A DNA stretch of 64,000 bases from assembly GCF_041886205.1 (NCBI RefSeq), contig NZ_CP169029.1, one strand, 5' to 3'. Below, piece by piece: positions 11,212 to 28,494 of this stretch; position 1 is the first letter of the stretch; each line of letters begins with the position of its first letter. The notes under the pieces are model-generated. The model was not told the origin of the DNA. It worked only from the letters and a program-made list of their open reading frames with translations, and searched no databases. Source of the stretch: Escherichia coli. Its GTDB lineage: Bacteria > Pseudomonadota > Gammaproteobacteria > Enterobacterales > Enterobacteriaceae. Both the position numbers and the translations under genes were made by a program.

Positions 11212-11284
11212 GCGAGGACTCCTGTTAAACCCGCTGGAGGAAAACGGTAATGATAGCGGGTTAACAGGAGCAAGATGTAGTGGT

Positions 11285-12334
11285 TTATGCGATGACGCTT
11301 TGAATCACATAGTTAATCGCACCACCACCAACAATCAGCCAGGCAAACAGTACCAGTGCCATCAGCAGAGGTTTCGCCCCGGCTTTTTTCAGCGCGCTGA
11401 CGTGAGTGGTCAGACCCAGCGCCGCCATCGCCATTGCCAGCAGGAAGGTATCCAGCGTTACCAGCATGTTCACCACGCTCTGCGGTAACAGGTGGAACGA
11501 GTTAAAGATGGCAACGACGATGAACAAGATGGCAAACCACGGAATAGTGATTTTGCTTTTCTCGCCGCTGTTCGCCCCAGACAGCTGTTTAACACGCGCC
11601 GCCAGCAGGATGAGGAACGGAGCCAGCATCATCACGCGCAGCATTTTGGAAATAACTGCTGCGTTTTCCGCATCCGGGCTGATGGCATGACCTGCCGCCA
11701 CCACCTGCGCCACTTCGTGCACAGTAGAACCAATGTAGATACCGAAAGTTTCCGGACTAAACCATTGAGACATCAGCGGATATATCGCCGGGTAGAGGAA
11801 AATCGCGACGGTCCCGAAGATAACAACGGTTGCAACAGCCACGGTTACTTTACTGGCTTCCGCTTTCACTACCGGCTCAGTCGCCAGTACCGCGGCAGCA
11901 CCACAGATACTGCTACCGGCACCGATCAACCAGCTGGTGTGCTTATCCAGACCAAACACTTTCTGCCCCAGGAAGCAAGCCAGCAGGAAGGTACTGGACA
12001 GCGTCAACACGTCAATGATGATCCCACTGATACCGACATCGGCAATTTGCGAGAACGTCAGACGGAAGCCATAAAGAATGATACCCAGACGTAATAAATA
12101 TTGCTTGGCAAACAGCACACCACCGTCACAGCTTTTCCAGATGTGCGGATAGATGGTGTTGCCTAAAACCATCCCCAACAAGATTGCGAGGGTGAGGGCA
12201 CTAAACCCGGCACCCGCAACCGCGGGAATGGAACCACCCCACAGGGCGACCCCGGTGATAACTGCACTCAGGGCTAACCCCGGAATAAAATGCCACAGTG
12301 TACGATGTTGTTTCTGTAAGGTGATATTCGTCAT
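11285..12334 (-). CDS. yeiH: UPF0324 inner membrane protein YeiH
   Basis: 349-aa polytopic membrane ORF, divergent from the LysR regulator yeiE. Confidence 0.85.
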
Positions 12335-12400
12335 AACCCTCTCCTTTATCCGGGCATAAGGTTACGACTAACTGGTTTAAAAATAAAATTGATTATATAT

Positions 12401-12419
12401 TTATAATTAATCTTTATAA
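12401..12419. promoter_or_regulatory. Candidate LysR-type box in the yeiH-yeiE divergent region
   Basis: ttataa-N7-ttataa dyad (T-N11-A type) read directly between the divergent genes. Confidence 0.3.
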
Positions 12420-12432
12420 GTGGTAAGCGACT

Positions 12433-13314
12433 ATGCACATCACCCTCCGGCAGTTGGAAGTTTTTGCAGAAGTATTGAAAAGTGGATCAACCACCCAGGC
12501 GTCGGTGATGCTGGCGTTGTCGCAATCAGCAGTGAGCGCAGCCTTGACCGACCTGGAAGGGCAGCTTGGCGTTCAACTGTTTGATCGCGTGGGGAAAAGA
12601 CTGGTAGTTAATGAACACGGTCGGCTGCTCTATCCGCGTGCGTTGGCACTGCTTGAACAGGCGGTTGAAATCGAACAACTGTTTCGCGAAGACAACGGCG
12701 CGATTCGTATCTATGCCAGTAGTACCATCGGTAACTACATTCTGCCTGCAGTTATTGCCCGTTATCGCCATGATTATCCGCAGTTGCCGATTGAACTTAG
12801 CGTTGGGAACAGCCAGGACGTGATGCAAGCGGTGCTGGATTTCCGCGTTGATATTGGCTTTATTGAAGGACCGTGCCACAGCACTGAAATCATTTCTGAA
12901 CCGTGGCTGGAAGACGAGCTGGTGGTTTTCGCCGCGCCGACTTCGCCGTTGGCCCGTGGTCCGGTCACCTTAGAGCAGCTGGCCGCTGCGCCGTGGATCC
13001 TGCGTGAACGCGGTTCCGGCACGCGGGAGATTGTCGATTATCTATTGCTGTCACATTTACCGAAGTTTGAGATGGCGATGGAATTAGGTAACTCCGAGGC
13101 AATCAAACATGCGGTGCGTCATGGGTTGGGAATTAGTTGCCTGTCGCGACGGGTGATTGAAGATCAATTGCAGGCAGGCACATTAAGTGAAGTTGCGGTC
13201 CCTCTGCCGCGCCTGATGCGTACGTTGTGGCGTATACATCATCGGCAAAAACACCTTTCCAACGCGCTACGGCGCTTTCTGGACTATTGCGATCCCGCGA
13301 ATGTACCGCGTTAA
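12433..13314 (+). CDS. yeiE: LysR-family transcriptional regulator YeiE
   Basis: 293-aa ORF with N-terminal LysR HTH ([36 protein letters not shown]). Confidence 0.9.
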
Positions 13315-13518
13315 GTTGCTGTACAAGAACATGCTGGTGCTGTGTCGATTTCGTGACGCAGCGCCTTCAGCATGCATTCGCCAGAAAAGAGATTGGCTGC
13401 TTTACTTATAATCCCTGGGCGATCATGAAGGTGTCTTATAACCGTGTATTTCTGCCGGAAGGATTGCCAATCGTCTGCTACAATCGCGCCTCATTTTTTA
13501 GATGGATAGCATTTTTGT

Positions 13519-14988
13519 ATGGTTTCCGAAACTAAAACCACAGAAGCGCCGGGCTTACGCCGTGAATTAAAGGCGCGTCACCTGACGATGATTGCCATTG
13601 GCGGTTCCATCGGTACAGGTCTTTTTGTTGCCTCTGGCGCAACGATTTCTCAGGCAGGTCCGGGCGGGGCATTGCTCTCGTATATGTTGATTGGCCTGAT
13701 GGTTTACTTCCTGATGACCAGTCTCGGTGAACTGGCTGCATATATGCCGGTTTCCGGTTCGTTTGCCACTTACGGTCAGAACTATGTTGAAGAAGGCTTT
13801 GGCTTCGCGCTGGGCTGGAACTACTGGTACAACTGGGCGGTGACTATCGCCGTTGACCTGGTTGCAGCTCAGCTGGTCATGAGCTGGTGGTTCCCGGATA
13901 CACCGGGCTGGATCTGGAGTGCGTTGTTCCTCGGCGTTATCTTCCTGCTGAACTACATCTCAGTTCGTGGCTTTGGTGAAGCGGAATACTGGTTCTCACT
14001 GATCAAAGTCACGACAGTTATTGTCTTTATCATCGTTGGCGTGCTGATGATTATCGGTATCTTCAAAGGCGCGCAGCCTGCGGGCTGGAGCAACTGGACA
14101 ATCGGCGAAGCGCCGTTTGCTGGTGGTTTTGCGGCGATGATCGGCGTAGCTATGATTGTCGGCTTCTCTTTCCAGGGAACCGAGCTGATCGGTATTGCTG
14201 CAGGCGAGTCCGAAGATCCGGCGAAAAACATTCCACGCGCGGTACGTCAGGTGTTCTGGCGAATCCTGTTGTTCTATGTGTTCGCGATCCTGATTATCAG
14301 CCTCATTATTCCGTACACCGATCCGAGCCTGCTGCGTAACGATGTTAAAGACATCAGCGTTAGTCCGTTCACCCTGGTGTTCCAGCACGCGGGTCTGCTC
14401 TCTGCGGCGGCGGTGATGAACGCAGTTATTCTGACGGCGGTGCTGTCAGCCGGTAACTCCGGTATGTATGCGTCTACTCGTATGCTGTACACCCTGGCGT
14501 GTGACGGTAAAGCGCCGCGCATTTTCGCTAAACTGTCGCGTGGTGGCGTGCCGCGTAATGCGCTGTATGCGACGACGGTGATTGCCGGTCTGTGCTTCCT
14601 GACCTCCATGTTTGGCAACCAGACGGTATACCTGTGGCTGCTGAATACCTCCGGGATGACGGGTTTTATCGCCTGGCTGGGGATTGCCATTAGCCACTAT
14701 CGCTTCCGTCGCGGTTACGTATTGCAGGGACACGACATTAACGATCTGCCGTACCGTTCAGGTTTCTTCCCATTGGGGCCGATCTTCGCATTCATTCTGT
14801 GTCTGATTATCACTTTGGGCCAGAACTACGAAGCGTTCCTGAAAGATACTATTGACTGGGGCGGCGTAGCGGCAACGTATATTGGTATCCCGCTGTTCCT
14901 GATTATTTGGTTCGGCTACAAGCTGATTAAAGGAACTCACTTCGTACGCTACAGCGAAATGAAGTTCCCGCAGAACGATAAGAAATAA
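13519..14988 (+). CDS. lysP: Lysine-specific permease (APC family)
   Basis: 489-aa ORF starting MVSETKTTEAPGLRRELKARHLTMIAIGGSIGTGLFVASG. Confidence 0.95.
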   Translation: MVSETKTTEAPGLRRELKARHLTMIAIGGSIGTGLFVASGATISQAGPGGALLSYMLIGLMVYFLMTSLGELAAYMPVSGSFATYGQNYVEEGFGFALGWNYWYNWAVTIAVDLVAAQLVMSWWFPDTPGWIWSALFLGVIFLLNYISVRGFGEAEYWFSLIKVTTVIVFIIVGVLMIIGIFKGAQPAGWSNWTIGEAPFAGGFAAMIGVAMIVGFSFQGTELIGIAAGESEDPAKNIPRAVRQVFWRILLFYVFAILIISLIIPYTDPSLLRNDVKDISVSPFTLVFQHAGLLSAAAVMNAVILTAVLSAGNSGMYASTRMLYTLACDGKAPRIFAKLSRGGVPRNALYATTVIAGLCFLTSMFGNQTVYLWLLNTSGMTGFIAWLGIAISHYRFRRGYVLQGHDINDLPYRSGFFPLGPIFAFILCLIITLGQNYEAFLKDTIDWGGVAATYIGIPLFLIIWFGYKLIKGTHFVRYSEMKFPQNDKK

Positions 14989-15008
14989 GTTTCCTCCCTT
15001 CCTTGCTA

Positions 15009-15035
15009 AGCCCTCTCAACCGAGAGGGCTTTTTC
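15009..15035 (+). terminator. Rho-independent terminator of lysP
   Basis: agccctctc-aacc-gagagggct followed by ttttt. Confidence 0.8.
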
Positions 15036-15083
15036 AATTCCATTTCCCTGACAAATCATGCGGATATAAAATTTAACATTTGG

Positions 15084-15111
15084 ATTGATAATTGTTATCG
15101 TTTGCATTATC
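15084..15111. promoter_or_regulatory. Fur box in the cirA promoter region
   Basis: gattgataattgttatcgtttgcattatcg matches the GATAATGATAATCATTATC Fur consensus; cirA is a classic Fur-repressed gene. Confidence 0.65.
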
Positions 15112-15281
15112 GTTACGCCGCAATCAAAAAAGGCTGACAAATCAGAGGCTGTTCCGGCTTTCTGGGATGATCACCTGCATAAAAAATAAGTCCACCGCGA
15201 TGCTGCCGTACGCAAGGGGACGTGAAGAAGATGTGAGCGATAACCCATTTTATTTTCGTAGTTACCTCATGGAGATATGGA

Positions 15282-17261
15282 ATGTTTAGGTTGAACCCTT
15301 TCGTACGGGTCGGGCTGTGTTTGTCCGCTATTTCTTGTGCATGGCCTGTGTTAGCGGTCGATGATGATGGCGAAACGATGGTTGTCACTGCATCTTCCGT
15401 GGAACAAAATCTTAAAGATGCACCTGCCAGTATCAGCGTCATTACCCAGGAAGACCTGCAGCGAAAACCGGTACAGAATCTGAAGGATGTCCTCAAAGAA
15501 GTGCCTGGCGTACAACTGACGAACGAAGGGGATAACCGTAAGGGCGTTAGTATTCGTGGTCTGGACAGCAGCTATACCCTGATTCTCGTCGACGGTAAAC
15601 GCGTGAACTCCCGCAATGCCGTCTTCCGCCACAATGATTTCGATCTGAACTGGATCCCGGTCGATTCCATCGAACGTATTGAAGTGGTCCGTGGCCCGAT
15701 GTCGTCGCTGTACGGTTCCGATGCGCTCGGCGGTGTAGTGAATATCATCACCAAAAAAATCGGTCAGAAATGGTCGGGTACCGTTACCGTCGATACCACC
15801 ATTCAGGAACATCGCGATCGCGGTGACACCTATAACGGTCAGTTCTTTACCAGTGGACCATTAATTGATGGTGTGCTGGGAATGAAAGCTTACGGCAGCC
15901 TGGCAAAACGTGAAAAGGATGACCCGCAAAACTCAACGACCACCGATACCGGAGAAACGCCGCGTATTGAAGGATTCTCCAGCCGCGACGGCAATGTCGA
16001 ATTTGCCTGGACACCGAATCAAAATCACGATTTTACTGCCGGATACGGTTTCGACCGTCAGGATCGTGATTCCGACTCGCTGGACAAAAACCGCCTGGAA
16101 CGCCAGAACTACTCCGTCAGCCATAATGGGCGTTGGGATTACGGCACCAGCGAACTGAAATACTACGGTGAGAAAGTCGAGAACAAAAACCCTGGCAACA
16201 GCAGCCCGATAACTTCCGAAAGCAATACGGTCGACGGCAAATACACGTTGCCGCTGACGGCGATTAATCAGTTTCTCACGGTTGGCGGTGAATGGCATCA
16301 CGACAAACTTAGCGATGCGGTGAACCTGACCGGGGGAACCAGCTCCAAAACGTCCGCCAGCCAGTACGCGCTATTTGTGGAAGATGAATGGCGGATCTTC
16401 GAGCCGCTGGCGCTGACGACCGGCGTGCGTATGGACGATCACGAAACCTACGGTGAACACTGGAGTCCGCGTGCCTACCTGGTTTATAACGCCACCGACA
16501 CCGTAACGGTGAAAGGGGGCTGGGCGACGGCATTTAAAGCACCTTCTCTGTTGCAACTTAGCCCTGACTGGACGAGCAATTCCTGCCGTGGCACATGTAA
16601 GATTGTGGGTAGCCCGGATCTGAAACCAGAAACCAGCGAAAGTTGGGAGCTGGGGCTTTACTACATGGGTGAAGAAGGCTGGCTGGAAGGGGTTGAATCC
16701 AGCGTTACCGTTTTCCGTAACGATGTGAAAGATCGTATCAGCATCAGCCGTACGTCTGACGTCAACGCTGCACCGGGCTACCAAAACTTTGTCGGTTTTA
16801 CAGCGAACGGTGTGCCGGTATTTAGCTACTACAACGTTAACAAAGCACGTATTCAGGGCGTGGAAACCGAGCTGAAAATTCCGTTCAACGATGAATGGAA
16901 ACTGTCACTCAACTACACCTACAACGATGGTCGTGATGTCAGCAACGGCGAAAACAAACCGCTATCCGATCTGCCGTTCCATACCGCTAACGGTACGCTG
17001 GACTGGAAACCGCTGGCGCTGGAAGACTGGTCATTCTATGTTTCTGGTCACTATACCGGGCAGAAACGAGCCGACAGCGCGACGGCTAAAACACCTGGCG
17101 GTTATACCATCTGGAATACCGGCGCGGCCTGGCAGGTGACTAAAGACGTCAAACTGCGCGCAGGCGTGCTGAACCTTGGCGACAAGGATCTCAGCCGTGA
17201 TGACTACAGTTATAACGAAGATGGACGTCGTTACTTTATGGCAGTGGATTATCGCTTCTGA
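15282..17261 (+). CDS. cirA: TonB-dependent catecholate siderophore / colicin I receptor
   Basis: 659-aa ORF with signal peptide [25 protein letters not shown], TonB box region and C-terminal terminal-Phe beta-barrel (…MAVDYRF). Confidence 0.95.
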
Positions 17262-17270
17262 TGAGAAGAT

Positions 17271-17293
17271 GCCCGGCGCGGATCCCGCCGGGC
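17271..17293. terminator. GC-rich hairpin between the convergent cirA and transporter gene ends
   Basis: gcccggcg-cggatc-ccgccgggc; no clear T-tract on either strand. Confidence 0.4.
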
Positions 17294-17319
17294 ATAATGC
17301 CAGAAATTCTGTTCTGGAT

Positions 17320-18642
17320 TTATAACCGATGAAATTTTGCCAGTAAGGCCAGTGAAAATGTTGTCAGCAAAATGGTAATGACGGCGTAAATATACACGCC
17401 TGACCATTCCCAACTGTTTTTCACCATAATTACTGGAAGCCCTGCCATTGCCGCACCTACATAACTAAACAAGCCCCTGAATCCAGTAATGGAACCTGCC
17501 GCATCTTTATGCGTAACATCCAGACATCCGACAGCGAATAACATATGTGGTCCATACAATGCAAACCCCATGATTGTAAACAGAATAGCCGTTAATGTGT
17601 AGGAGACGTCCTGTACCAGCGGCACGAGAACGATGCAAATACATAAGGCGATGGCAAACATTAATCCGGTCATCCAGCGGTTACTTTTAAACATAAAATC
17701 GGACAAGTACCCTGCAAGTAATCCCCCTGCAAGTCCACCTGCTTCAAACCAGGATATAATGGAGTTCGCTTTAATCAGGCTCCAGTTATGAACCTGAGAA
17801 TAATAAATTTGTGGCCAGTCATTGAGGATGGTGCGTGCAATATAGACTGACATATCCCCGAGGATAATTAGCCAAACTAATGGGTTGGTAAGAATATATT
17901 TAACGAAAATTTGCCAAAAACTCAGATCAACCGGGCTTGCTTTAACTTGCGCAAGTTCTGTCGGGTCGTTGCGCCACTTACCTACGTTAGGCAAACCGAG
18001 TGTGCCAGGACGATCTTTAATCGTAAACAGGGCAACAACCCCCATAATCAGCGAGATTACACCCGGAACATAAAAACCCATTTTCCAGCTGCCACTAAAA
18101 GCAATGGCAAAGCTTGTCAGGAGAGGTGCAAGACTACCGCCAATATTATGCGCCGCTTCAACAACTGCCCACCAGCGCCCGCGTTCATTTTTAGAGAACC
18201 ACGAGGCCATAATTTTTGCCATCGGCGGAAAACTGGTACCCTGAAGAATAGCATTAAGGCTATACAGGACATAGAACGCAGCAACGCTATCTGAAAAACC
18301 GAAAAGAATGTTAACAATACCGACGCCAATAAGTACGGGGCCGGTCATCGCGCGTGGGTTAATTTTATCAACTAACATGCCACCTACAAACTTCATGGAG
18401 CCATAAAGAATGTAAAAGACCGATGACATGATAGCGAAATCTTGTGCAGTTAATGACGTATCCGTTAACATCGCCGGCATGGCCGCAGAGAAATTCTTGC
18501 GGGTTAAATAAAATACGGCATAAGAGATAAATACAGAGGTGATGATTTCAATGCGAAATTTTTTATAAGTATGATCAACTTCTTCTTTCGGTTTGACCAC
18601 TGGTTGGTCGGCCTGGCTGAAAATAAATTTTTTCAAGCTCAT
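17320..18642 (-). CDS. Organophosphate:Pi antiporter (OPA/MFS; GlpT/UhpT/PgtP-like) transporter, accessory
   Basis: 440-aa 12-TM-type ORF with the GlpT-like N-terminal YLTRKNF motif and overall GlpT/UhpT-like architecture; AAGGAA Shine-Dalgarno before the ATG at 18642; 32 nt downstream of the phosphatase gene on the same strand. Confidence 0.8.
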   Translation of the reverse strand: MSLKKFIFSQADQPVVKPKEEVDHTYKKFRIEIITSVFISYAVFYLTRKNFSAAMPAMLTDTSLTAQDFAIMSSVFYILYGSMKFVGGMLVDKINPRAMTGPVLIGVGIVNILFGFSDSVAAFYVLYSLNAILQGTSFPPMAKIMASWFSKNERGRWWAVVEAAHNIGGSLAPLLTSFAIAFSGSWKMGFYVPGVISLIMGVVALFTIKDRPGTLGLPNVGKWRNDPTELAQVKASPVDLSFWQIFVKYILTNPLVWLIILGDMSVYIARTILNDWPQIYYSQVHNWSLIKANSIISWFEAGGLAGGLLAGYLSDFMFKSNRWMTGLMFAIALCICIVLVPLVQDVSYTLTAILFTIMGFALYGPHMLFAVGCLDVTHKDAAGSITGFRGLFSYVGAAMAGLPVIMVKNSWEWSGVYIYAVITILLTTFSLALLAKFHRL

Positions 18643-18674
18643 CGTGAGTTTCCTTTTCTGTGAACCTTATGGCG

Positions 18675-19562
18675 CTATAATTTTTCTTCTATAAAGAAGA
18701 GAAGCGACTCGAAACCATTAAAATTAATCTGGTTAGCAACTTTTTCCCGGGTTTTAGGTTTTGCTTTCCATGCCACGCCATTCCCGGCATGCAGAAGCAT
18801 AGGAATATCATTAGCGCCATCTCCGCAGGCAATGATGTTTTCACGACAAATAGATAACTCTGTCGCCAAATTTATCAGGGTTTGCTTTTTCTTTTCTGCA
18901 TTCATAATAGGAAAGGTAATTTTGTCAGTTAAGCGATCTTCCTGAATGCGTACAGAGTTAGAAAATGCATAATCAAGTTGATATTTTTCTTTTAATCTCT
19001 CAGTGAAAATATCTAAACCTCCGGATATAATTGCCGTCTTAAATCCTTTTTCTTTAAAAATGGGAAGAATAGTTTTAAGACCTGGTGAAAGAGTCATCTG
19101 TTCACAAACCTGATGCAATATATCTTTATGCGTTCCTTTAAGCATGCCAATTCGACGGGTAAAACTGGTATCAAAATCGATTTTTCCTTCCATCGCTTCA
19201 CGGGTCAGCGCGGTGATTTTTTCAGAGATCCCGAGTCTACGGGCTATTTCATCAACGCCTTCCTCTTCAACAAAGGTGGAATCCATATCAAAGGCAATAA
19301 TTCCCTGACCCGGTAAGTCCGTAGGTTTGCGGAAAAAATCAAAATGATGATGATCAGCACGGTGACGTAAACCAGCATAAAAATCAGGATTGGTTACATC
19401 ATCTGGTAATATTAGCTTTAGATACTCTTTATTTATTTGCTCACTGTAATTCGTTGTTAACGAAAACACCGAGGATGAAACCTTTAAATGTTGCAAATAA
19501 TGTTCCAGACATTTTTTGGTGATGTCGATGCCTGTTGGCGACAAGAAATAAATAATCGTCAT
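18675..19562 (-). CDS. SerB-like HAD-family phosphoserine phosphatase, accessory
   Basis: 295-aa ORF with HAD motifs DMDST, IDEIA, ISGG, GDGANDIPML and AKPK that line up with E. coli SerB as I recall it; AAAGGAG Shine-Dalgarno. Confidence 0.8.
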   Translation of the reverse strand: MTIIYFLSPTGIDITKKCLEHYLQHLKVSSSVFSLTTNYSEQINKEYLKLILPDDVTNPDFYAGLRHRADHHHFDFFRKPTDLPGQGIIAFDMDSTFVEEEGVDEIARRLGISEKITALTREAMEGKIDFDTSFTRRIGMLKGTHKDILHQVCEQMTLSPGLKTILPIFKEKGFKTAIISGGLDIFTERLKEKYQLDYAFSNSVRIQEDRLTDKITFPIMNAEKKKQTLINLATELSICRENIIACGDGANDIPMLLHAGNGVAWKAKPKTREKVANQINFNGFESLLFFIEEKL

Positions 19563-19655
19563 TTACCGCTCCTTTTTATCTGTAATGATTATAATAAGGT
19601 TTCGTAGAGGCTGATGTATCTAACAATCACAGTTGTGAATGTTAAATAAAAGATA

Positions 19656-19716
19656 AAAAAGTACTTTTTTTGATACCTTGAAATAATAAGATACTAAAAG
19701 TACCATTTTTGATATC
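19656..19716. promoter_or_regulatory. Pair of related AT-rich palindromic sites in the divergent promoter region of the islet; candidate operators
   Basis: aaaaagtacttttt (perfect 14-bp palindrome, 19656-19669) with a related copy ctaaaagtaccatttttgata about 40 bp downstream; both are followed by tttgata. Confidence 0.4.
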
Positions 19717-19772
19717 TTTGCCAGGATATAACGAATAACGAGTTTTCAACGTTGAAGGAATTATTTACAAAA

Positions 19773-21125
19773 ATGGAAAGCTGCGTAGATATATTCAAGA
19801 TAGTTATAGGTCCATCCAGTTCCCGCACTGTCGGGCCAATGCGTGCGGCTTATAATTTTGTCTCACAATTGAAACAGCGAGAAATGTTACCTTTGTTGCG
19901 GAAGATTGATGTCGAACTTTATGGTGCACTGTCATTAAGCCGCAAGTGCCACAATGTTGATGTGGCGATTTATCTCGGTTTGCAAGGTCACTTACCTGAC
20001 AGCGTTGATATCCGCATGGAAATGTCCGCCATCAGGCGTGCAGAAACTGAGGCGACGCTGGAAGTTATGCCTGGTGTCAACGTTGGTGTAGCCATTATTT
20101 CTAATCCACAGGCGCACCCAGGGCATCCTTATGCGATGACATTTCGTGCCAGAGATGACTGGTTTACGCTTTATGAAGAAACCTGGTTTTCTGTCGGCGA
20201 CGGTCAGGTGCAAAAAGCGGGAGAGGCGATGATTCCCTCCTCAGTCACTCCACATCCTTTTGAATTCCAGAACGCAAACGAATTATTAAAACTTTGTCAG
20301 CAAAACGGATTATCTGTTGCGGCATTAATGATGAAAAACGAACTGCACTGCCAGACATCTGCTTTTTTGCATGACGATTTCAATAAAAAATGGGAAGTAA
20401 TGAAGGATGCGGTCTGTCGCGGGATGCATACAGAAGGATTACTTCCAGGTCCGTATCAGGTTAACCGTCGTGCCTGTGCTTTATATAAATCGTTGCAGGC
20501 AAAGGGGTTTACCAACGACTTCCTGACTGCGATCAATTGGGTCAATACTTTTGCCATTGCGGTGAGCGAAGAAAATGCTGCTGGTGGACGCGTCGTGACA
20601 GCACCCACCAACGGCGCGAGCGGTATTATCCCGGCCGTACTGTGTTGGTATGACAAATTCATTCACGAGATTGATACTTACTCCGTTACCCGCTTTTTTC
20701 TGACCGCCGGTGCCATCGCCATTCTGTTCAAAAAAAATGCCTCTATTCTGGGGTCTGAAGTTGGATGTCAGGGGGAAATAGGCGTTGCCAGTTCAATGGC
20801 GGCAGCAGGATTAGCAGAACTTATGGGCGGGTCAGTGACTCAGGTACTCAGCGCGGCAGAAATTGCGATGGAACACCATTTAGGTTTGACCTGTGATCCA
20901 GTTGGCGGGCAGGTACAAATTCCTTGTATTGAACGAAATGCTATTTCAGCCGTGAAAGCTATCAACGCAACGACGATGGCTTTGAGTCGCATAAGCGAGC
21001 CGTGCATTACACTGGATGAGATAATTTCCGCGATGTATGAAACCGGAAAAGATATGAGCGCTAAATACCGGGAAACTTATCATGGCTGTCTTAGCAAATT
21101 GCAGCCAAGAAAAAAGGACGCATAA
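19773..21125 (+). CDS. L-serine dehydratase (Fe-S, SdaA/SdaB/TdcG family), accessory paralog
   Basis: Conserved GIGPSSS-type N-terminus ([15 protein letters not shown]) and C-terminal [17 protein letters not shown] block; start placed at the ATG (MESCV…), since the ORF track begins at a TTG at 19752. Confidence 0.85.
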
Positions 21126-21126
21126 G

Positions 21127-21516
21127 ATGAAATATAATACGATGAATAACAACGAAATTATTTTATCTCTATGTGCACGCATTAAAGAAACGCGGATCTC
21201 CTTATCATTGACCCAGCAGCAGTTAGCCGATCGTGCATTGGTGGGCATTGCAACGGTCAAGCGGATTGAAAAGGGAGGAAGTTTAAATCTTGATACCCTC
21301 ATTTCTATTCTGCGCGCGCTGAATAAATTGCAAAATCTCGATGCCATATTGTTCGAAGCAGAAATGCGTAATTTCAATGAAAATACTTCCAGCGGCGAAG
21401 GGGCAGGGCGACTTCAGGTGCGCCAGCAACTGACAGATTTAAACCAGAAGTCTCCAGCCCCGCACGCAGATGACCGTGATTTTAGTACGGTGCTGGAAAA
21501 TACCTTTTGCTGGTGA
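21127..21516 (+). CDS. XRE-family HTH transcriptional regulator, accessory
   Basis: HTH LSLTQQQLADRALVGIATVKRIEKGG; ATG is 1 nt after the dehydratase stop, implying an operon. Start placed at the internal ATG 21127 (129 aa); the ORF track starts at 21082. Confidence 0.7.
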   Translation: MKYNTMNNNEIILSLCARIKETRISLSLTQQQLADRALVGIATVKRIEKGGSLNLDTLISILRALNKLQNLDAILFEAEMRNFNENTSSGEGAGRLQVRQQLTDLNQKSPAPHADDRDFSTVLENTFCW

Positions 21517-22386
<870 letters not shown>

Positions 22387-22610
22387 TCATCATACCGTTT
22401 ATTCAATGTGCTGTGAGTAACTTTCACTTCCGTATTTGCATAATGATGTTTTAACATCTGCTGATGAAAGGCAGTGGCAATTACAATAATTATCGCTGTG
22501 AATACTGGATTATGTGCGCCGCCTCACGCACAATAATCAGGCTGTAAATCAGCTTAATAACTTTGCCCCCACGCAGGGCGGAGGCGTCACACCTGCAGGA
22601 GAAATCATAA

Positions 22611-23279
22611 ATGCCATCACTCAGTAAAGAAGCGGCCCTGGTTCATGAAGCGTTAGTTGCGCGAGGACTGGAAACACCGCTGCGCCCGCCCGTGCATGAA
22701 ATGGATAACGAAACGCGCAAAAGCCTTATTGCTGGTCATATGACCGAAATCATGCAGCTGCTGAATCTCGACCTGGCTGATGACAGTTTGATGGAAACGC
22801 CGCATCGCATCGCTAAAATGTATGTCGATGAAATTTTCTCCGGTCTGGATTACGCCAACTTCCCGAAAATCACCCTCATTGAAAACAAAATGAAGGTCGA
22901 TGAAATGGTCACCGTGCGCGATATCACTCTGACCAGTACCTGTGAACACCATTTTGTTACCATCGATGGCAAAGCGACGGTGGCTTATATCCCGAAAGAT
23001 TCGGTGATCGGTCTGTCAAAAATTAACCGTATCGTGCAGTTCTTTGCCCAGCGTCCGCAGGTGCAGGAACGTCTGACGCAGCAAATTCTTATTGCGCTAC
23101 AAACGCTGTTGGGCACCAATAACGTGGCTGTCTCTATCGACGCGGTGCATTACTGCGTGAAGGCGCGTGGCATCCGCGATGCAACCAGCGCCACGACAAC
23201 GACCTCCCTCGGTGGTTTGTTCAAATCCAGTCAGAATACGCGCCACGAGTTTCTGCGTGCTGTGCGTCATCACAACTGA
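22611..23279 (+). CDS. folE: GTP cyclohydrolase I
   Basis: 222-aa ORF starting [23 protein letters not shown], with the CEHH active-site motif. Confidence 0.95.
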
Positions 23280-23295
23280 TTAAAAGGCAGGAACC

Positions 23296-24453
23296 ATGGA
23301 GCGCAACGTCACGCTCGATTTTGTTCGCGGCGTCGCCATTCTGGGGATCCTGCTATTAAACATCAGCGCCTTTGGGCTACCAAAGGCGGCTTATCTCAAT
23401 CCCGCCTGGTACGGCGCTATTACGCCGCAGGATGCATGGACCTGGGCATTTCTCGATCTCATCGGCCAGGTGAAATTCCTCACGCTTTTTGCGCTGCTGT
23501 TTGGTGCGGGCCTGCAAATGTTGCTGCCCCGTGGCAGACGCTGGATCCAGTCGCGGTTAACGCTGTTAGTCTTGCTGGGTTTTATTCACGGTTTATTGTT
23601 CTGGGACGGCGATATTCTGCTGGCTTACGGGCTGGTGGGCTTAATCTGCTGGCGGCTGGTGCGCGATGCGCCATCGGGAAAAAGCCTGTTTAATACAGGC
23701 GTCATGCTTTATCTGGTGGGGCTTGGCGTTTTGCTGTTATTGGGGCTGATTTCCGACAGCCAGACCAGCCGCGCCTGGACGCCGGATGCATCGGCTATTT
23801 TGTATGAAAAATACTGGAAGCTTCACGGCGGCGTTGAAGCGATCAGTAATCGTGCCGATGGTGTTGGCAACAGTTTACTGGCACTGGGCGCACAGTATGG
23901 CTGGCAACTGGCAGGGATGATGCTCATTGGTGCGGCGCTGATGCGCAGCGGCTGGCTGAAAGGGCAGTTCAGCTTACGTCACTATCGTCGTACTGGTTTT
24001 GTGCTGGTGGCGATTGGGGTGACCATTAACCTTCCTGCCATCGCCCTGCAATGGCGGCTGGACTGGGCATATCGCTGGTGCGCCTTCTTACTTCAGATGC
24101 CGCGGGAACTGAGTGCGCCGTTTCAGGCGATAGGCTATGCGTCGCTGTTTTATGGTTTCTGGCCGCAATTGAGCCGCTTTAAGCTGGTGCTTGCGATCGC
24201 CTGCGTCGGACGGATGGCGCTGACCAACTATCTATTGCAAACGCTGATTTGTACCACGCTTTTTTACCACCTCGGTTTGTTTATGCATTTTGACCGCCTG
24301 GAGCTGCTGGCGTTTGTTATTCCGGTATGGCTGGCGAATATCCTCTTCTCTGTTATCTGGCTGCGTTACTTCCGCCAGGGGCCGGTGGAATGGCTCTGGC
24401 GTCAGTTAACTTTGCGTGCTGCCGGACCGGCAATATCTAAAACATCAAGATAA
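23296..24453 (+). CDS. yeiB: DUF418-family inner membrane protein YeiB
   Basis: 385-aa polytopic membrane ORF directly downstream of folE. Confidence 0.85.
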   Translation: MERNVTLDFVRGVAILGILLLNISAFGLPKAAYLNPAWYGAITPQDAWTWAFLDLIGQVKFLTLFALLFGAGLQMLLPRGRRWIQSRLTLLVLLGFIHGLLFWDGDILLAYGLVGLICWRLVRDAPSGKSLFNTGVMLYLVGLGVLLLLGLISDSQTSRAWTPDASAILYEKYWKLHGGVEAISNRADGVGNSLLALGAQYGWQLAGMMLIGAALMRSGWLKGQFSLRHYRRTGFVLVAIGVTINLPAIALQWRLDWAYRWCAFLLQMPRELSAPFQAIGYASLFYGFWPQLSRFKLVLAIACVGRMALTNYLLQTLICTTLFYHLGLFMHFDRLELLAFVIPVWLANILFSVIWLRYFRQGPVEWLWRQLTLRAAGPAISKTSR

Positions 24454-24594
24454 CGATCTGGATCACATTCGTTAACAAAACGGCTGTAACCGTTTCCATT
24501 GCTGTGACTCGATTCACGAAGTCCTGTATTCAGTGCTGACAAAATAGCCGCCAGCAAGCAGTCATTTACTGCAATCTCATAACAGGTAGTGAAT

Positions 24595-25635
24595 ATGATC
24601 ACCATTCGTGATGTAGCGCGTCAGGCTGGCGTCTCTGTGGCAACGGTTTCCCGGGTGCTCAATAACAGCACGCTGGTCAGTGCCGACACGCGTGAAGCAG
24701 TAATGAAAGCCGTGAGTGAGCTGGATTATCGGCCAAACGCCAATGCCCAGGCGCTGGCAACTCAGGTTAGCGATACCATTGGCGTGGTGGTGATGGACGT
24801 TTCTGATGCTTTTTTCGGCGCGCTGGTAAAAGCGGTGGATCTGGTCGCCCAGCAGCATCAGAAATACGTGCTAATCGGCAATAGCTATCATGAAGCGGAA
24901 AAAGAGCGTCACGCCATTGAGGTGTTAATTCGCCAGCGTTGTAATGCGTTGATTGTTCACTCAAAAGCATTGAGTGACGATGAACTGGCGCAATTTATGG
25001 ATAACATTCCCGGTATGGTGTTAATCAACCGCGTTGTGCCGGGGTACGCCCATCGTTGCGTTTGCCTGGATAATCTCAGCGGTGCCCGAATGGCGACGCG
25101 CATGTTGCTGAATAACGGTCATCAACGTATTGGTTATCTTTCTTCCAGCCACGGCATTGAAGATGACGCCATGCGTAAAGCAGGCTGGATGAGTGCGTTG
25201 AAAGAGCAGGATATTATTCCGCCAGAAAGCTGGATTGGCACTGGTACGCCGGACATGCCGGGCGGTGAGGCGGCGATGGTTGAACTGCTGGGGCGCAATC
25301 TACAACTTACCGCTGTATTTGCTTATAACGACAATATGGCCGCTGGCGCACTGACAGCATTAAAAGATAATGGCATTGCGATTCCGTTACATCTCTCAAT
25401 CATCGGTTTCGATGATATTCCCATCGCCCGTTACACCGACCCGCAATTAACGACCGTGCGTTATCCCATTGCTTCAATGGCGAAATTAGCCACCGAACTG
25501 GCCTTGCAGGGGGCAGCAGGCAATATTGATCCTCGTGCCAGCCACTGTTTTATGCCGACGTTAGTGCGTCGCCATTCTGTCGCAACACGCCAGAATGCGG
25601 CGGCGATCACTAACTCAACAAATCAGGCGATGTAA
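24595..25635 (+). CDS. galS: LacI/GalR-family repressor GalS
   Basis: N-terminal [27 protein letters not shown]; start placed at ATG 24595 (346 aa), since the ORF-track start at 24589 is a GTG. Confidence 0.9.
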
Positions 25636-25647
25636 CCGCTTTCAATC

Positions 25648-25663
25648 TGTGAGTGATTTCACA
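25648..25663. promoter_or_regulatory. CRP-consensus site TGTGA-N6-TCACA between galS and mglB
   Basis: tgtgagtgatttcaca is a perfect match to the CRP half-sites; mgl is cAMP-CRP dependent, but its position about 250 bp upstream of mglB makes the target promoter uncertain. Confidence 0.4.
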
Positions 25664-25914
25664 GTATCTTAACAATGTGATAGCTATGATTGCACCGTTT
25701 TAACGTTGTAACCCGTATGTAACAGTGAATAATCACTTTCACCGAGGTAATAGCGTCATAACAACAATTAAAGCCGTTTTCTGGAGCGTTACCGGGCATG
25801 GAAGAACGAATTTTAAAAAGTGAGCTTCGGCGTTCAGTAACACTTCATTAACTCTACTGCCCCGCCGAGCATTTATCTCAAGCACTACCCTGCATAAGAA
25901 AAACCGGAGATACC

Positions 25915-26913
25915 ATGAATAAGAAGGTGTTAACCCTGTCTGCTGTGATGGCCAGCATGTTATTCGGTGCCGCTGCACACGCTGCTGATACCCGCATTGG
26001 TGTAACAATCTATAAGTACGACGATAACTTTATGTCTGTAGTGCGCAAGGCTATTGAGCAAGATGCGAAAGCCGCGCCAGATGTTCAGCTGCTGATGAAT
26101 GATTCTCAGAATGACCAGTCCAAGCAGAACGATCAGATCGACGTATTGCTGGCAAAAGGGGTGAAGGCACTGGCAATCAACCTGGTTGACCCGGCAGCTG
26201 CGGGTACGGTGATTGAGAAAGCGCGTGGGCAAAACGTGCCGGTGGTTTTCTTCAACAAAGAACCGTCTCGTAAGGCGCTGGATAGCTACGACAAAGCCTA
26301 CTACGTTGGCACTGACTCCAAAGAGTCCGGCATTATTCAGGGTGATTTGATTGCTAAACACTGGGCGGCGAATCAGGGTTGGGATCTGAACAAAGACGGT
26401 CAGATTCAGTTCGTACTGCTGAAAGGTGAACCGGGCCATCCGGATGCAGAAGCACGTACCACTTACGTGATTAAAGAATTGAACGATAAAGGCATCAAAA
26501 CTGAACAGTTACAGTTAGATACCGCAATGTGGGACACCGCTCAGGCGAAAGATAAGATGGACGCCTGGCTGTCTGGCCCGAACGCCAACAAAATCGAAGT
26601 GGTTATCGCCAACAACGATGCGATGGCAATGGGCGCGGTAGAAGCACTGAAAGCACACAACAAGTCCAGCATTCCGGTGTTTGGCGTCGATGCGCTGCCA
26701 GAAGCGCTGGCGCTGGTGAAATCCGGTGCACTGGCGGGCACAGTACTGAACGATGCTAACAACCAGGCGAAAGCGACCTTTGATCTGGCGAAAAACCTGG
26801 CCGATGGCAAAGGTGCGGCTGATGGCACCAACTGGAAAATCGACAACAAAGTGGTCCGCGTACCTTATGTTGGCGTAGATAAAGACAACCTGGCTGAATT
26901 CAGCAAGAAATAA
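25915..26913 (+). CDS. mglB: Galactose/glucose ABC transporter periplasmic binding protein
   Basis: 332-aa ORF with signal peptide [23 protein letters not shown]. Confidence 0.95.
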
Positions 26914-26973
26914 GACTGATTGGGCGCAGTCGTTTACTGCGCCCTTATTGTATGGCCAACAAGGTAAAATTAT

Positions 26974-28494
26974 ATGGTCAGCTCAACGACTCCGTCTTCC
27001 GGGGAATACTTGTTGGAAATGAGCGGTATCAACAAGTCCTTTCCTGGTGTTAAGGCACTTGATAACGTTAATTTAAAAGTCCGGCCACATTCTATCCATG
27101 CATTAATGGGGGAAAACGGCGCAGGAAAATCAACATTATTAAAATGCCTGTTTGGTATTTATCAAAAAGACTCCGGCACCATTTTATTCCAGGGTAAAGA
27201 GATTGATTTCCATTCCGCCAAAGAGGCACTGGAAAATGGTATTTCGATGGTACACCAGGAGTTAAACCTGGTATTACAACGTTCGGTGATGGATAACATG
27301 TGGCTGGGGCGATATCCCACCAAAGGCATGTTTGTCGATCAGGACAAAATGTACCGCGAAACCAAAGCGATTTTTGATGAACTGGATATTGATATCGATC
27401 CGCGTGCGCGCGTCAGCACATTATCCGTTTCGCAAATGCAGATGATCGAAATCGCCAAAGCATTTTCCTATAACGCGAAAATTGTGATTATGGATGAACC
27501 GACTTCTTCGTTAACCGAAAAAGAGGTCAATCATCTGTTCACTATTATTCGTAAATTAAAAGAGCGCGGCTGCGGTATTGTTTATATCTCTCATAAAATG
27601 GAAGAAATCTTCCAGTTATGTGATGAAGTTACCGTATTGCGCGACGGTCAGTGGATCGCCACCGAACCGCTGGCAGGGCTGACGATGGACAAGATCATCG
27701 CCATGATGGTTGGGCGTTCTCTTAACCAGCGTTTCCCTGACAAAGAAAACAAGCCGGGCGAAGTCATCCTCGAGGTGCGTAACCTGACGTCACTGCGCCA
27801 GCCGTCGATTCGCGATGTCTCGTTTGATCTGCATAAAGGGGAGATCCTCGGTATTGCCGGTCTGGTGGGGGCGAAACGTACCGATATTGTTGAGACGTTA
27901 TTTGGTATTCGCGAGAAATCGGCTGGCACCATTACGTTGCACGGCAAACAGATCAATAACCATAATGCCAACGAAGCCATAAACCACGGATTTGCACTGG
28001 TAACTGAGGAGCGCCGCTCAACGGGAATTTATGCCTATCTGGATATTGGTTTTAACTCGTTAATTTCCAATATTCGCAACTACAAAAATAAAGTTGGTTT
28101 ACTGGATAACTCGCGGATGAAAAGCGATACCCAGTGGGTGATTGATTCGATGCGGGTAAAAACGCCGGGTCATCGGACGCAAATTGGTTCGCTCTCCGGT
28201 GGTAATCAGCAAAAGGTGATTATTGGTCGCTGGCTACTAACGCAACCAGAAATATTAATGCTCGATGAACCGACGCGCGGTATTGATGTCGGGGCGAAGT
28301 TTGAGATCTATCAGTTAATTGCCGAACTGGCGAAGAAAGGCAAGGGGATTATTATTATCTCCTCTGAAATGCCTGAGTTGTTAGGGATAACAGACCGTAT
28401 TCTGGTCATGAGCAATGGTCTCGTTTCCGGAATTGTCGATACAAAAACAACAACGCAAAACGAAATTCTGCGTCTTGCGTCTTTGCACCTTTAA
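26974..28494 (+). CDS. mglA: Galactose ABC transporter ATPase (duplicated ABC domains)
   Basis: 506-aa ORF with two Walker A motifs (GENGAGKST and a second in the C-terminal half) and LSGG signature motifs. Confidence 0.95.

Follow-up and report, generated by a model that had tools for sequence, protein, structure and literature searches.

Here, we describe a four-gene block of Escherichia coli that, judging from protein families and site residues, appears on balance to encode a self-contained route for the use of external O-phospho-L-serine, down to pyruvate. Taken jointly with that pathway, the reading that we slightly favor is that the block is a functional variant which few E. coli lineages, this one included, have retained and the others have lost. 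The literature searched contained no published function for the block, no transport, enzyme, or growth data for the four proteins, and no OPA-family carrier of an amino-acid phosphate. A preliminary description of this DNA had put forward the same logic (import, dephosphorylate, deaminate), which now appears better supported through the Glu162/Arg389 pocket of the transporter, the phosphatase residues, and a transporter-phosphatase pairing in Photobacterium lutimaris. Three findings named in advance as counting against that proposal were looked for: the block was not found in K-12, no different substrate was described in the literature searched, and the transporter reached no equivalog cut-off that would group it with a carrier of known specificity.

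The window analyzed was a 64-kb stretch (64,000 nucleotides), in which cirA (15282-17261, plus strand) and yeiG (21517-22353, minus strand) flank a 4,245-bp block missing from K-12 (17279..21523). On alignment with the yeiG-cirA junction of K-12, homology was last seen at ~17278 and came back at ~21524; in K-12 the two genes are adjacent, as the preliminary description had it, with a 31-nt spacer and none of the four genes. The gap is filled by four intact open reading frames (ORFs) in two divergent operons, located where the preliminary description had placed them, and the gene identities given there hold by NCBIfam/Pfam profile scores. Intergenic gaps are 32 nt (phosphatase-transporter) and 1 nt (dehydratase-regulator). 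The AT-richness of the block has now been computed (43.0% GC versus 51.3% for the window) and makes it the GC minimum among all 4,245-bp windows in the 64 kb, ~3 standard deviations under the mean, with a GC3 of 0.33 to 0.46 for block genes versus 0.58 to 0.64 for flanking genes. Mobility genes are lacking, as had been stated (no transposase or integrase among the ORFs at the block); no tRNA was present within 10 kb, and no bracketing repeats were found around the block. A GC-rich hairpin (17269..17295) where cirA and the transporter gene converge is likely a bidirectional terminator (71-nt stretch 17255-17325; −32.5 kcal/mol; z = −4.1 versus shuffles), and its left arm, GATGCCCGGCG, is present also in the 31-nt K-12 spacer.

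The transporter (17320..18642, minus strand; 440 amino acids [aa]) is an OPA-family (GlpT/UhpT/UhpC/PgtP-like) MFS organophosphate:phosphate antiporter by NCBIfam profiles, structure model, and alignment. It scored under the cut-offs of all NCBIfam models considered, namely UhpC (423 bits; cut-off, 564), the PgtP subfamily TIGR00881 (340 bits), GlpT (278 bits), and the PgtP equivalog (217 bits; cut-off, 750); that the best score fell to the model of UhpC, a glucose-6-phosphate sensor, weakens the phosphoserine pathway. GlpT structure 1PW4 matched with an E value of 1.4e-68, and the AlphaFold model (pLDDT, 83.9) has the predicted GlpT/G6PT fold (TM, 0.82 to 0.91 to G6PT1 and GlpT), with glucose-6-phosphate exchangers as the closest structural matches. 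Residues R48, K84, H165, and R270 are conserved and align with GlpT R45, K80, H165, and R269, which we take to be the phosphate-binding residues. By alignment, V161-E162 and T386/R389 are unique to the transporter clade. Val-Glu stands in every site-intact ortholog (E. coli, Escherichia whittamii, Salmonella, Citrobacter, Gallibacterium, and P. lutimaris), where GlpT, UhpT, UhpC, and other aligned relatives have Trp-Asn, and position 162 is mostly Asn or Ser in aligned relatives; the positions of UhpT Asp388/Lys391 are Thr/Arg in every ortholog, leaving Arg389 unpaired. When the nearest OPA clusters in a set of 1.84 billion proteins were compared through 122 full-length representatives, E162 and R389 occurred together only in the transporter's own cluster; the nearest sister clade (Edwardsiella, Photobacterium, and Helicobacter) has Thr/Lys at the T386/R389 positions and the usual Trp-Asn. 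UhpT D388/K391 and GlpT N162, which align with this pocket, are sites of known mutagenesis.

Read from alignment, model, and the mutagenesis of those sites, the Glu162/Arg389 pocket suggests a fit to a zwitterionic amino-acid phosphate, and the transporter is a predicted phosphoserine carrier. In a first step, it would import phosphoserine in exchange for internal phosphate, with the Arg48/Arg270 pair, Lys84, and His165 binding the phosphate, Glu162 the ammonium, and the unpaired Arg389 the carboxylate of the serine moiety. The pathway gains support from P. lutimaris, where the transporter-SerB pairing is independent: the gene for a SerB-type phosphatase (TIGR00338, 243 bits; ~33% identical to the enteric one) lies 57 nt downstream of that for a transporter of this type (68% identity), although this phosphatase could simply be the housekeeping copy. 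It is weakened by the neighborhoods themselves, as no dehydratase adjoins the P. lutimaris transporter and neither a phosphatase nor a dehydratase lies within 8 kb of the Gallibacterium transporter, which is on its own.

The first gene of the transporter operon (18675..19562, minus strand; 295 aa) encodes a SerB-type HAD phosphoserine phosphatase paralog. It passes the SerB equivalog TIGR00338 (208 bits; cut-off, 144) but, at 204 bits, misses the cut-off of 413 for the full-length enterobacterial SerB model. A full-length ortholog is available as PDB 4EZE (E value, 2e-116), which we take to be the Enzyme Function Initiative target Salmonella Typhi t0658. All HAD motifs are present (DMDST, SGG, K, and GDGAND), and E101, M124, F130, and R137 align with E20, M43, F49, and R56 of Methanocaldococcus jannaschii PSP, presumably the phosphoserine-recognition residues. 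The protein evolves fast (63% aa identity to Salmonella versus 92% for the transporter), as do its N-terminal 85 aa. In the second step, this co-transcribed enzyme would convert phosphoserine to L-serine and phosphate, the latter serving as counter-substrate to drive the next exchange cycle.

The divergent operon begins with a type 2 [4Fe-4S] L-serine dehydratase paralog distinct from SdaA/SdaB (19773..21125, plus strand; 450 aa), its start refined to ATG 19773, not TTG 19752 (NCBI PGAP call, identical strain). It exceeds the L-serine ammonia-lyase threshold of TIGR00720 (545 bits; cut-off, 345), lies under the cut-offs of two specific L-serine ammonia-lyase equivalogs, and is matched by the Legionella enzyme LSD (4RQO; E value, 8e-109). 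The three cluster cysteines are kept, as is the His aligned with Legionella His61, the catalytic base of that enzyme (PMC12647591). The dehydratase departs at conserved positions, with SSSHT changed to SSSRT and no C-terminal Cys, so its substrate or control may differ; these deviations and the unusually fast evolution of the phosphatase weaken the phosphoserine pathway. In the third step, L-serine would yield pyruvate and ammonia, a gain of carbon and nitrogen that would also prevent toxic serine build-up.

The same deviations could mean a changed substrate, and the transporter may carry another amino- or carboxy-bearing organophosphate (O-phospho-L-threonine, O-phospho-D-serine, phosphohomoserine, phosphoethanolamine, or an aminophosphonate such as phosphonoalanine), with phosphatase and dehydratase processing that compound or its product. 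The pocket points to a head group that is zwitterionic or charged, without singling out serine, and AepP is an OPA carrier that takes an amino-organophosphorus compound (PMC8316502). We nonetheless consider such a substrate unlikely, as the phosphatase is above the SerB equivalog threshold with its PSP-aligned phosphoserine-binding residues kept, the dehydratase is above the L-serine ammonia-lyase threshold with catalytic His and cluster cysteines kept, and the block is devoid of a phosphonate-cleaving gene.

Control of the predicted phosphoserine route would fall to the fourth gene, which encodes an XRE-family HTH regulator (21127..21516, plus strand; 129 aa; Pfam HTH_3, residues 19-66, E value, 3e-9), its start refined to ATG 21127, not 21082 (NCBI PGAP call, identical strain). 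It starts 1 nt past the dehydratase stop, its own stop codon abuts that of yeiG, and it is conserved full-length in all orthologous loci. The divergent promoter/operator region (19563..19772; 34 to 36% GC) contains conserved islands within an otherwise saturated alignment of Escherichia, Salmonella, and Citrobacter. A candidate −10 hexamer TATAAT (19588..19593, minus strand) reads TATAAT or TACAAT in 14/14 aligned loci, 26 to 31 nt upstream of the phosphatase ATG, and is the putative promoter of the phosphatase-transporter operon. The palindrome TCACA-GT-TGTGA (19627..19638) is kept in Escherichia and Citrobacter, with partial conservation in Salmonella; it was considered as a CRP site, which its spacing does not fit. 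The motif AAARGTAYYNTTTTTGATAY has only two matches in the 64 kb (0 expected by chance), both conserved across the three genera: candidate operators 1 (AAAA GTACT-N6-GATAC, 19657..19676) and 2 (AAAA GTACC-N6-GATAT, 19696..19715). The latter overlaps the −10 predicted for the dehydratase-regulator operon, whose promoter-like site reads TTGAAA(19678)-17-TACCAT(19706). In a fourth step, the regulator, translationally coupled to the dehydratase, would bind these two GTAYY-N6-GATAY palindromes, which overlie its own promoter, and so control the divergent promoters.

The presence/absence survey at the cirA-yeiG junction called for in the preliminary description found the block in 89 of 5,426 complete E. 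coli genomes and an empty site in 5,333. Salmonella enterica (three subspecies; STM14_2708 = STM2195 in strain 14028s), E. whittamii, and at least nine Citrobacter species (species-level genomes) all have these four genes at the corresponding yeiG/cirA-lysP junction. Synonymous divergence of the block genes is in line with that of the flanks, and within E. coli block and flanks diverge in step; the block is therefore older than the Escherichia/Salmonella/Citrobacter split and is ancestral at this junction in that group. The suggestion that E. coli acquired it horizontally is thus not sustained, any such acquisition would be much older, and loss best accounts for the ~98% of E. coli without the block. 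The block is under purifying selection, with dN/dS versus E. whittamii of 0.06 (MFS), 0.20 (HAD), 0.10 (SDA), and 0.11 (XRE).

That ~98% of E. coli are without the block and that IS1 interrupts it in two carriers weaken the phosphoserine pathway and, with the truncated transporter of the sampled Citrobacter koseri genome and the fast-evolving phosphatase, could mark a functionless remnant being lost from E. coli, whatever its role in Salmonella. This seems quite improbable: the window and 85 of the 89 carriers have all four ORFs at full length, dN/dS is low (0.06 to 0.20), the regulatory elements are conserved, and carrier haplotypes that diverge by 3 to 5% are all intact, which argues for long maintenance.

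Equally improbable, in our view, is a PgtP-like phosphoglycerate/phosphoenolpyruvate carrier beside SerB and Sda paralogs that form a separate serine-homeostasis pair. It would account for the unpaired cationic residue at the UhpT Lys391 position, since UhpT variants with such a cation were reportedly found by Hall, Fann, and Maloney in 1999 to switch to PEP; the TIGR00881 score (340 bits) and the Thr/Lys with usual Trp-Asn of the sister clade point the same way. However, the PgtP equivalog score is far from its cut-off, the clade-unique Glu162 would repel a tri-anionic substrate, and the transporter is operon-linked to a SerB-type phosphatase in two distant lineages. Salmonella 14028s, moreover, has the ortholog, yet deletion of pgtP alone impairs growth with PGA/PEP as sole P source, as deletion of uhpT alone hinders growth on glucose-6-phosphate (G6P)/F6P, in a study that counts only three such antiporters (PMC10715179). 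These phenotypes, seen despite the ortholog locus, suggest that the transporter is not redundant with known carriers. A UhpC/UhpT-like hexose-phosphate carrier or sensor with a function unrelated to its neighbors would agree with the best NCBIfam match (UhpC), the closest structural matches, and the adenine/xanthine permease genes that adjoin the transporter gene in P. lutimaris and Gallibacterium, likewise uhpT in K-12, but is very unlikely given a score under the UhpC cut-off, no adjacent uhpAB-type two-component genes, Glu at the GlpT Asn162 position, an unpaired Arg at the UhpT Lys391 position (where an unpaired cation abolishes G6P transport in UhpT), and the Salmonella uhpT phenotype.

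The predicted phosphoserine carrier shares its 12-helix MFS fold (TM-score, 0.82 to 0.91) with GlpT, UhpT, UhpC, and PgtP of E. coli/Salmonella and with mammalian G6PT (SLC37A4), and its mechanism, external organophosphate exchanged for internal phosphate, is expected to be alike. It differs in reaching no equivalog or subfamily cut-off of the OPA family, in having Val-Glu for the conserved Trp161-Asn162 of GlpT and Thr/Arg for the Asp388-Lys391 pair of UhpT, and in being co-transcribed with a phosphatase beside an XRE regulator, whereas uhpT and pgtP are under two-component control. Compared by description, AepP, the 2-aminoethylphosphonate permease of Pseudomonas putida, is likewise an OPA carrier of an amino-bearing organophosphorus substrate (predicted in our case); it keeps the phosphate-binding but not the glycerol-moiety-binding residues of GlpT, has its gene placed with catabolic genes, and acts in nitrogen nutrition irrespective of phosphate status (PMC8316502). 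AepP, however, is distantly related (~28% identity to GlpT [PMC8316502]), its substrate is a phosphonate without carboxylate, and the enzymes that follow it cleave C-P bonds (PhnWX/PhnWAY), where the block has a phosphatase and a dehydratase. The phosphatase has the HAD-IB core and four motifs in common with SerB (E. coli; M. jannaschii PSP, 1F5S; Vibrio cholerae, 3N28) and 4EZE, but its catalytic domain has just 37% identity to that of K-12 SerB, and it has a different, fast-evolving N-terminal domain (85 aa) and a catabolic genomic role (operon with a transporter) where that of SerB is biosynthetic. With SdaA, SdaB, TdcG, and Legionella LSD, the dehydratase shares the single-chain alpha/beta fusion, cluster cysteines, and catalytic His; it is a separate paralog in which the His of GPSSSHT is replaced by Arg, a conserved change, and SRKCHNVD stands in place of TGKGHHTD. 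Also missing from it is a C-terminal cysteine; that of the Legionella enzyme acts as an intrinsic competitive inhibitor by ligating the fourth iron (PMC12647591). The sdaCB (sdaC and sdaB were seen adjacent) and tdc operons follow the same logic, a dedicated importer coupled genetically to an Fe-S serine dehydratase; the species imported here is predicted to be a phosphate ester, unlike that of the sdaCB serine permease, and would therefore need an antiporter and a phosphatase, the latter also regenerating the counter-ion.

Four intact open reading frames lie between cirA (15282-17261, plus strand) and yeiG (21517-22353, minus strand), in agreement with the preliminary description: an MFS transporter (17320-18642, minus strand), a HAD phosphatase (18675-19562, minus strand), a serine dehydratase (19773-21125, plus strand), and an XRE/HTH regulator (21127-21516, plus strand). 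Two start codons were refined following the NCBI annotation of the identical stretch in E. coli PT62 (window 19773 for the dehydratase and 21127 for the regulator). The dehydratase stop is followed by one base and then the regulator ATG, and the regulator stop codon directly touches the yeiG stop codon on the opposite strand. A strong hairpin occupies 17269-17295, and the 71-nt stretch around it folds at -32.5 kcal/mol. The neighboring colicin/siderophore receptor gene, cirA, shows a 4-codon length polymorphism among E. coli strains (659 amino acids in the window and in strain MFDS1019527; 663 amino acids in K-12 and in strain 2016C-3878).

Windowed GC content confirmed that the block is AT rich (43.0% versus 51.3% in the window, the minimum among all 4,245-bp windows of the 64 kb), and GC3 was 0.33 to 0.46 in its genes versus 0.58 to 0.64 in neighboring genes. 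The GC deficit was smaller elsewhere (Salmonella, 50.1% versus 53 to 54%; Citrobacter, 47 to 49% versus 52 to 57%). As also described previously, the block holds no integrase or transposase open reading frame; no tRNA was found in window 10000-30000, nor were direct or inverted repeats found bracketing the block.

Out of 5,426 complete E. coli genomes, 89 (1.6%) carried the block, chromosomally in all cases and essentially at full length in 85, and 5,333 had the K-12-type empty junction, in which 31 nt separate yeiG from cirA. Homology to K-12 is lost at about 17278, just inside the hairpin, and regained at about 21524, within the last yeiG codons. The four genes, unchanged in order and orientation, also occupy the stretch from yeiG to cirA/lysP in three subspecies of Salmonella enterica (enterica, arizonae, and diarizonae), in Escherichia whittamii, and in nine species-level genomes of Citrobacter. 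One scan of species representatives gave no match in other Escherichia species. Close relatives of the transporter are few in number, and an ortholog of the phosphatase is also present in Scandinavium manionii. In the S. arizonae type strain CCUG 6322T (comparison locus L012), the transporter reading frame extends to 527 amino acids, a case of decay. Most Citrobacter loci have, in place of cirA, the gene for another TonB-dependent receptor, on the opposite strand and 36 to 39% identical to CirA (at about 9700-11700 in comparison loci L009-L011, L013, L014, L020, and L022).

Divergence of the block was compared with that of its surroundings. Against E. whittamii, dS was 0.24 to 0.56 for the block genes and 0.27 to 0.65 for lysP, cirA, yeiG, and folE; against Salmonella and Citrobacter, dS was saturated for the block genes and likewise for yeiG. 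Among E. coli carriers, block identity to the window (94.9 to 96.9%) tracked that of the flanks (95.9 to 97.9%), and the window flanks share 99 to 100% amino acid identity with K-12. The yeiG tail was compared at window 21517-21530, at 4735-4780 of comparison locus L001, and in loci L011 and L022. The product ends in YLQE or YLRE in carrier E. coli and E. whittamii and in YLLK in the empty K-12 allele, an ending shared by Citrobacter portucalensis and C. youngae, both of which carry the block; the empty allele is thus not a simple deletion from the present-day E. coli carrier haplotype. The 31-nt K-12 spacer still holds one arm of the hairpin that lies 3' of the transporter gene. Taken together, synteny, matching divergence, the yeiG tail, and the leftover hairpin arm indicate that the block is older than the split between Escherichia, Salmonella, and Citrobacter. 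The empty allele, by now the prevailing form in E. coli, is best read as an old deletion, and the window holds a retained ancestral variant of the yeiG/cirA junction.

The preliminary description had read the block as an old horizontal acquisition. Acquisition by E. coli was not supported, because the same site is occupied in E. whittamii, Salmonella, and Citrobacter and divergence tracks the flanks; the framing as an "E. coli islet" should be dropped. A recent island in E. coli was rejected given the lack of mobility genes, tRNA, and repeats, the synteny in three genera, and divergence in step with the flanks; among the usual marks of a genomic island, atypical base composition was seen, and mobility features, absence from the sister site, and out-of-step divergence were not. 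Recent introgression from E. whittamii was rejected as well, since the flanks are E. coli-like and, relative to E. whittamii, block and flanks show similar divergence. The low GC content may point to a much older acquisition, not an event in E. coli.

The transporter matched GlpT 1PW4 (phmmer, E value 1.4e-68), and the best Foldseek matches to its AlphaFold model (pLDDT, 83.9; pTM, 0.84) were G6PT1/SLC37A4 and GlpT 1PW4 (TM, 0.82 to 0.91). By sequence and predicted 12-TM MFS fold, it is assigned to the OPA family. The phosphate-binding arginine pair (tested as GlpT R45/R269 and UhpT R46/R275) is present: transporter R48, K84, H165, and R270 align with GlpT R45, K80, H165, and R269 and are kept in all site-intact orthologs.

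Two positions set the transporter clade apart, and the model places both inside predicted helices (residues 151-183 and 379-398). The clade has Val161-Glu162 where GlpT, UhpT, UhpC, and all more distant aligned relatives have Trp-Asn; in GlpT, this position lies in helix 5, one helical turn from His165. At the Asp388-Lys391 pair of UhpT, in helix 11, it has Thr386/Arg389, which leaves the cation unpaired. When 1.84 billion cluster representatives were searched, all members of the clade fell into one 50% cluster, and among the 122 nearest full-length representatives, Glu162 and Arg389 occurred together in that cluster only. Asn162 of GlpT was reportedly among the residues that Law et al. (2009) found to contact the glycerol part of the substrate and not the phosphate, and UhpT without Asp388 is said to shift its selectivity to phosphoenolpyruvate (Hall, Fann and Maloney, 1999). 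A class of OPA residues that bind the glycerol moiety, distinct from the phosphate binders, does exist (PMC8316502). A pocket with one additional anion and one additional cation would suit the needs of a carrier of a zwitterionic amino acid phosphate.

A sister OPA clade (41 to 53% identity), with members in Edwardsiella ictaluri (L037), Photobacterium sp. Ph5 (L024), Helicobacter sp. (L023), and a metagenomic sequence (L007), keeps Trp-Asn and has Thr/Lys at UhpT positions 388/391, again an unpaired cation; it matched no curated equivalog. Its gene neighbors (a PLD-like gene and arn genes nearby in Edwardsiella; a D-2-hydroxyacid dehydrogenase beside a 53%-identical metagenomic relative) proved uninformative.

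The phosphatase scored above the cutoff of the SerB equivalog TIGR00338 (208.1 versus 144.15 bits) and below that of NF008350, for full-length enterobacterial SerB (203.6 versus 413 bits), the latter match being limited to residues 78-288; its N-terminal 85 amino acids share 16% identity with K-12 SerB. HAD motifs I to IV are all present (D92xD94ST, S180GG, the motif III lysine, and GDGAND). E101, M124, F130, and R137 align with E20, M43, F49, and R56 of Methanocaldococcus jannaschii PSP, the residues that recognize the serine moiety of phosphoserine in that enzyme. The crystal structure PDB 4EZE, of the Enzyme Function Initiative target t0658 from Salmonella Typhi, is that of an ortholog (full-length match, E value 2e-116). 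These comparisons place the protein as a SerB-type member of the HAD-IB family and not as an ortholog of the housekeeping SerB.

The dehydratase, placed among the type-2 [4Fe-4S] enzymes, scored above the cutoff of the L-serine ammonia-lyase equivalog TIGR00720 (544.7 versus 345.1 bits) and below those of two specific L-serine ammonia-lyase equivalog models, and it matched the Legionella enzyme 4RQO (E value 8e-109). The three cluster cysteines are kept (motifs VGCQGE and LTCDP...IPCIERNA), and the His of KCHNVD aligns with that of GKGHGTD, i.e., catalytic His61 of Legionella LSD, the catalytic base of that enzyme (PMC12647591). When the window protein was compared with its orthologs in loci L003, L008, L011, L015, and L020, all read GPSSSRT where canonical enzymes have GPSSSHT, and SRKCHNVD where these have TGKGHHTD. 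All also lack the conserved C-terminal Cys and end in a basic tail (...QPRKKDA or similar), whereas SdaA and SdaB end in ...QCD/...ACD; in Legionella LSD, that cysteine is both a ligand of the fourth iron and a built-in competitive inhibitor (PMC12647591). Judged from the alignment, these departures may change how the enzyme is controlled, not the reaction it performs, with the His-to-Arg loop change and the missing terminal Cys suggesting altered control or substrate range.

Outside the enterics, Photobacterium lutimaris (L004, 3464-9329) encodes a 68% identical transporter with Glu162/Arg389, and 57 nt downstream lies a SerB-type phosphatase (TIGR00338, 243 bits) with about 33% identity to the enteric one; no dehydratase was found at this locus. 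The transporter-phosphatase pairing therefore recurs, and the complete four-gene design is confined to Enterobacteriaceae. In Gallibacterium species (L016, L017, L021, and L006, 8001-9320), the transporter (77 to 82% identical, with Glu162/Arg389) stands alone, and its GC content (37 to 39%) and synteny fit the host genome. The transporter adjoins a xanthine/uracil-family permease in both Gallibacterium and P. lutimaris, and an adenine deaminase as well in the latter. This neighborhood resembles K-12 adeQ-adeD-uhpT (L046), an analogy that could reflect descent from a uhp-like locus.

In the 210-bp divergent region, substitutions are saturated between genera, and conserved islands remain. A conserved TATAAT/TACAAT hexamer (19588-19593, minus strand) is placed as the candidate -10 element of the phosphatase-transporter operon. 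Two copies of AAARGTAYY-N-TTTTTGATAY (19657-19676 and 19696-19715), each an imperfect GTAYY-N6-GATAY palindrome, are candidate operators; the 64 kb contain no further match (0 expected by chance), and the two overlap a promoter-like site upstream of the dehydratase. The regulator has a Cro/C1-type HTH (Pfam HTH_3 at residues 19-66, E value 3.4e-9) and is the obvious candidate to bind both operators and repress its own operon. A conserved TCACA-GT-TGTGA palindrome (19627-19638) has no obvious binding protein; it was rejected as a CRP site given a spacing of 2 bp, not 6, and halves in reverse order. No known cis-regulatory RNA was found in the leader regions, where an Rfam E-value scan gave one chance-level match. 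A defense or toxin-antitoxin role for the XRE gene was likewise rejected (weak generic HTH match in PADLOC, HipB-type model below cutoff, and no adjacent toxin gene). In Salmonella, the regulator STM2195/t0660 is listed without an E. coli K-12 counterpart, and transposon insertions in STM2195 were underrepresented in S. Typhimurium grown in LB (PMC3487940). In another transposon screen, loss of STM14_2709, which from gene order is probably the Fe-S dehydratase gene as the next gene, improved growth/fitness under iron restriction (bioRxiv 10.1101/2021.07.28.454258). Both screens bear on the locus, and neither explains it.

We propose that external phosphoserine would enter via the transporter in exchange for internal Pi, that the cotranscribed phosphatase would free L-serine and regenerate the Pi driving the next exchange, that the dehydratase would convert serine to pyruvate and ammonia, and that the regulator would gate expression of the block. 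As a whole, we regard this import-dephosphorylation-deamination explanation as somewhat favored. Gene families, integrity, selection, synteny, and pocket residues come from direct observation, whereas the transporter substrate, the parts played by Glu162 and Arg389, and the operators are predictions. More tentatively, at a little under an even chance, the transporter would be the first phospho-amino-acid:phosphate antiporter, with Glu162 and the unpaired Arg389 reading the ammonium and carboxylate groups, and would form with the phosphatase and the tail-less dehydratase a dedicated phosphoserine catabolic pathway.

The transporter does not group with GlpT, UhpT, PgtP, or UhpC of known specificity: it fell under every NCBIfam cutoff, including both for GlpT (278 versus 633 and 265 versus 748). 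Transport of another charged organophosphate would accord with Glu162 and Arg389, which fit a charged or zwitterionic head group in general; the SerB equivalog score and recognition residues of the phosphatase point instead to phosphoserine, and we consider this alternative unlikely. A PgtP-like carboxy-phosphate carrier is less likely still, with the unpaired Arg389 and the PgtP subfamily score (340, cutoff 408) in its favor and, against it, a score far below the PgtP equivalog cutoff (217 versus 750). A 2023 study counted only GlpT, UhpT, and PgtP as such antiporters in Salmonella and, in strain 14028s, found that deletion of pgtP alone impairs growth on PGA/PEP as a P source and deletion of uhpT alone hinders growth on G6P/F6P (PMC10715179). 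These data argue against simple redundancy of the block transporter with the known carriers, although lack of induction could also underlie these phenotypes.

That the block is a functionless remnant in E. coli seems about as improbable as a PgtP-like carrier. IS1 interrupts it in two E. coli carriers, MB53 (H29) and strain 35 (H30), and the transporter of C. koseri NCTC10786 (L020, 8001-8816) is truncated at 274 amino acids. The phosphatase is a fast-evolving gene, with 63% amino acid identity to Salmonella versus 92% for the transporter, and its change is concentrated in the N-terminal 85 residues (32 to 38% identity versus 70 to 73% in the catalytic domain). Set against decay, dN/dS versus E. 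whittamii was 0.06 for the transporter, 0.20 for the phosphatase, 0.10 for the dehydratase, and 0.11 for the regulator (flanks, 0.00 to 0.04). Least probable of all is a UhpC/UhpT-like hexose-phosphate carrier, for despite its OPA family membership the transporter scored below the cutoffs of both UhpC (423 versus 564) and UhpT (196 versus 497) and has Thr386/Arg389 at the UhpT pair.

If phosphoserine is the substrate, a function would follow for a conserved four-gene Salmonella/Citrobacter locus, STM2195 and its three neighbors, and the pathway would be common in Citrobacter and in Salmonella enterica (found in three subspecies) and polymorphic in E. coli, where presence or absence (1.6% of complete genomes) could mark a niche. 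It could give access to phosphoserine from phosphoproteins such as casein or phosvitin, or from host cells. The textbook OPA family would gain a new class of substrate along with two specificity residues open to testing, and the block would exemplify a phosphatase wired to an antiporter and regenerating its counter-ion. All predictions are open to standard genetics and transport assays.

A full-text literature search found no published function for the locus and no phosphoserine-specific OPA transporter, and public databases carry the four proteins under generic names only. What emerges is a well-supported, directly testable hypothesis on a conserved Salmonella/Citrobacter locus, not a surprising mechanism: the parts are ordinary family members, and the novelty lies in their combination and in the predicted class of substrate. 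Conceptually, the nearest characterized counterpart is AepP, which carries 2-aminoethylphosphonate, belongs to the OPA family, and is encoded beside its own catabolic genes (PMC8316502).
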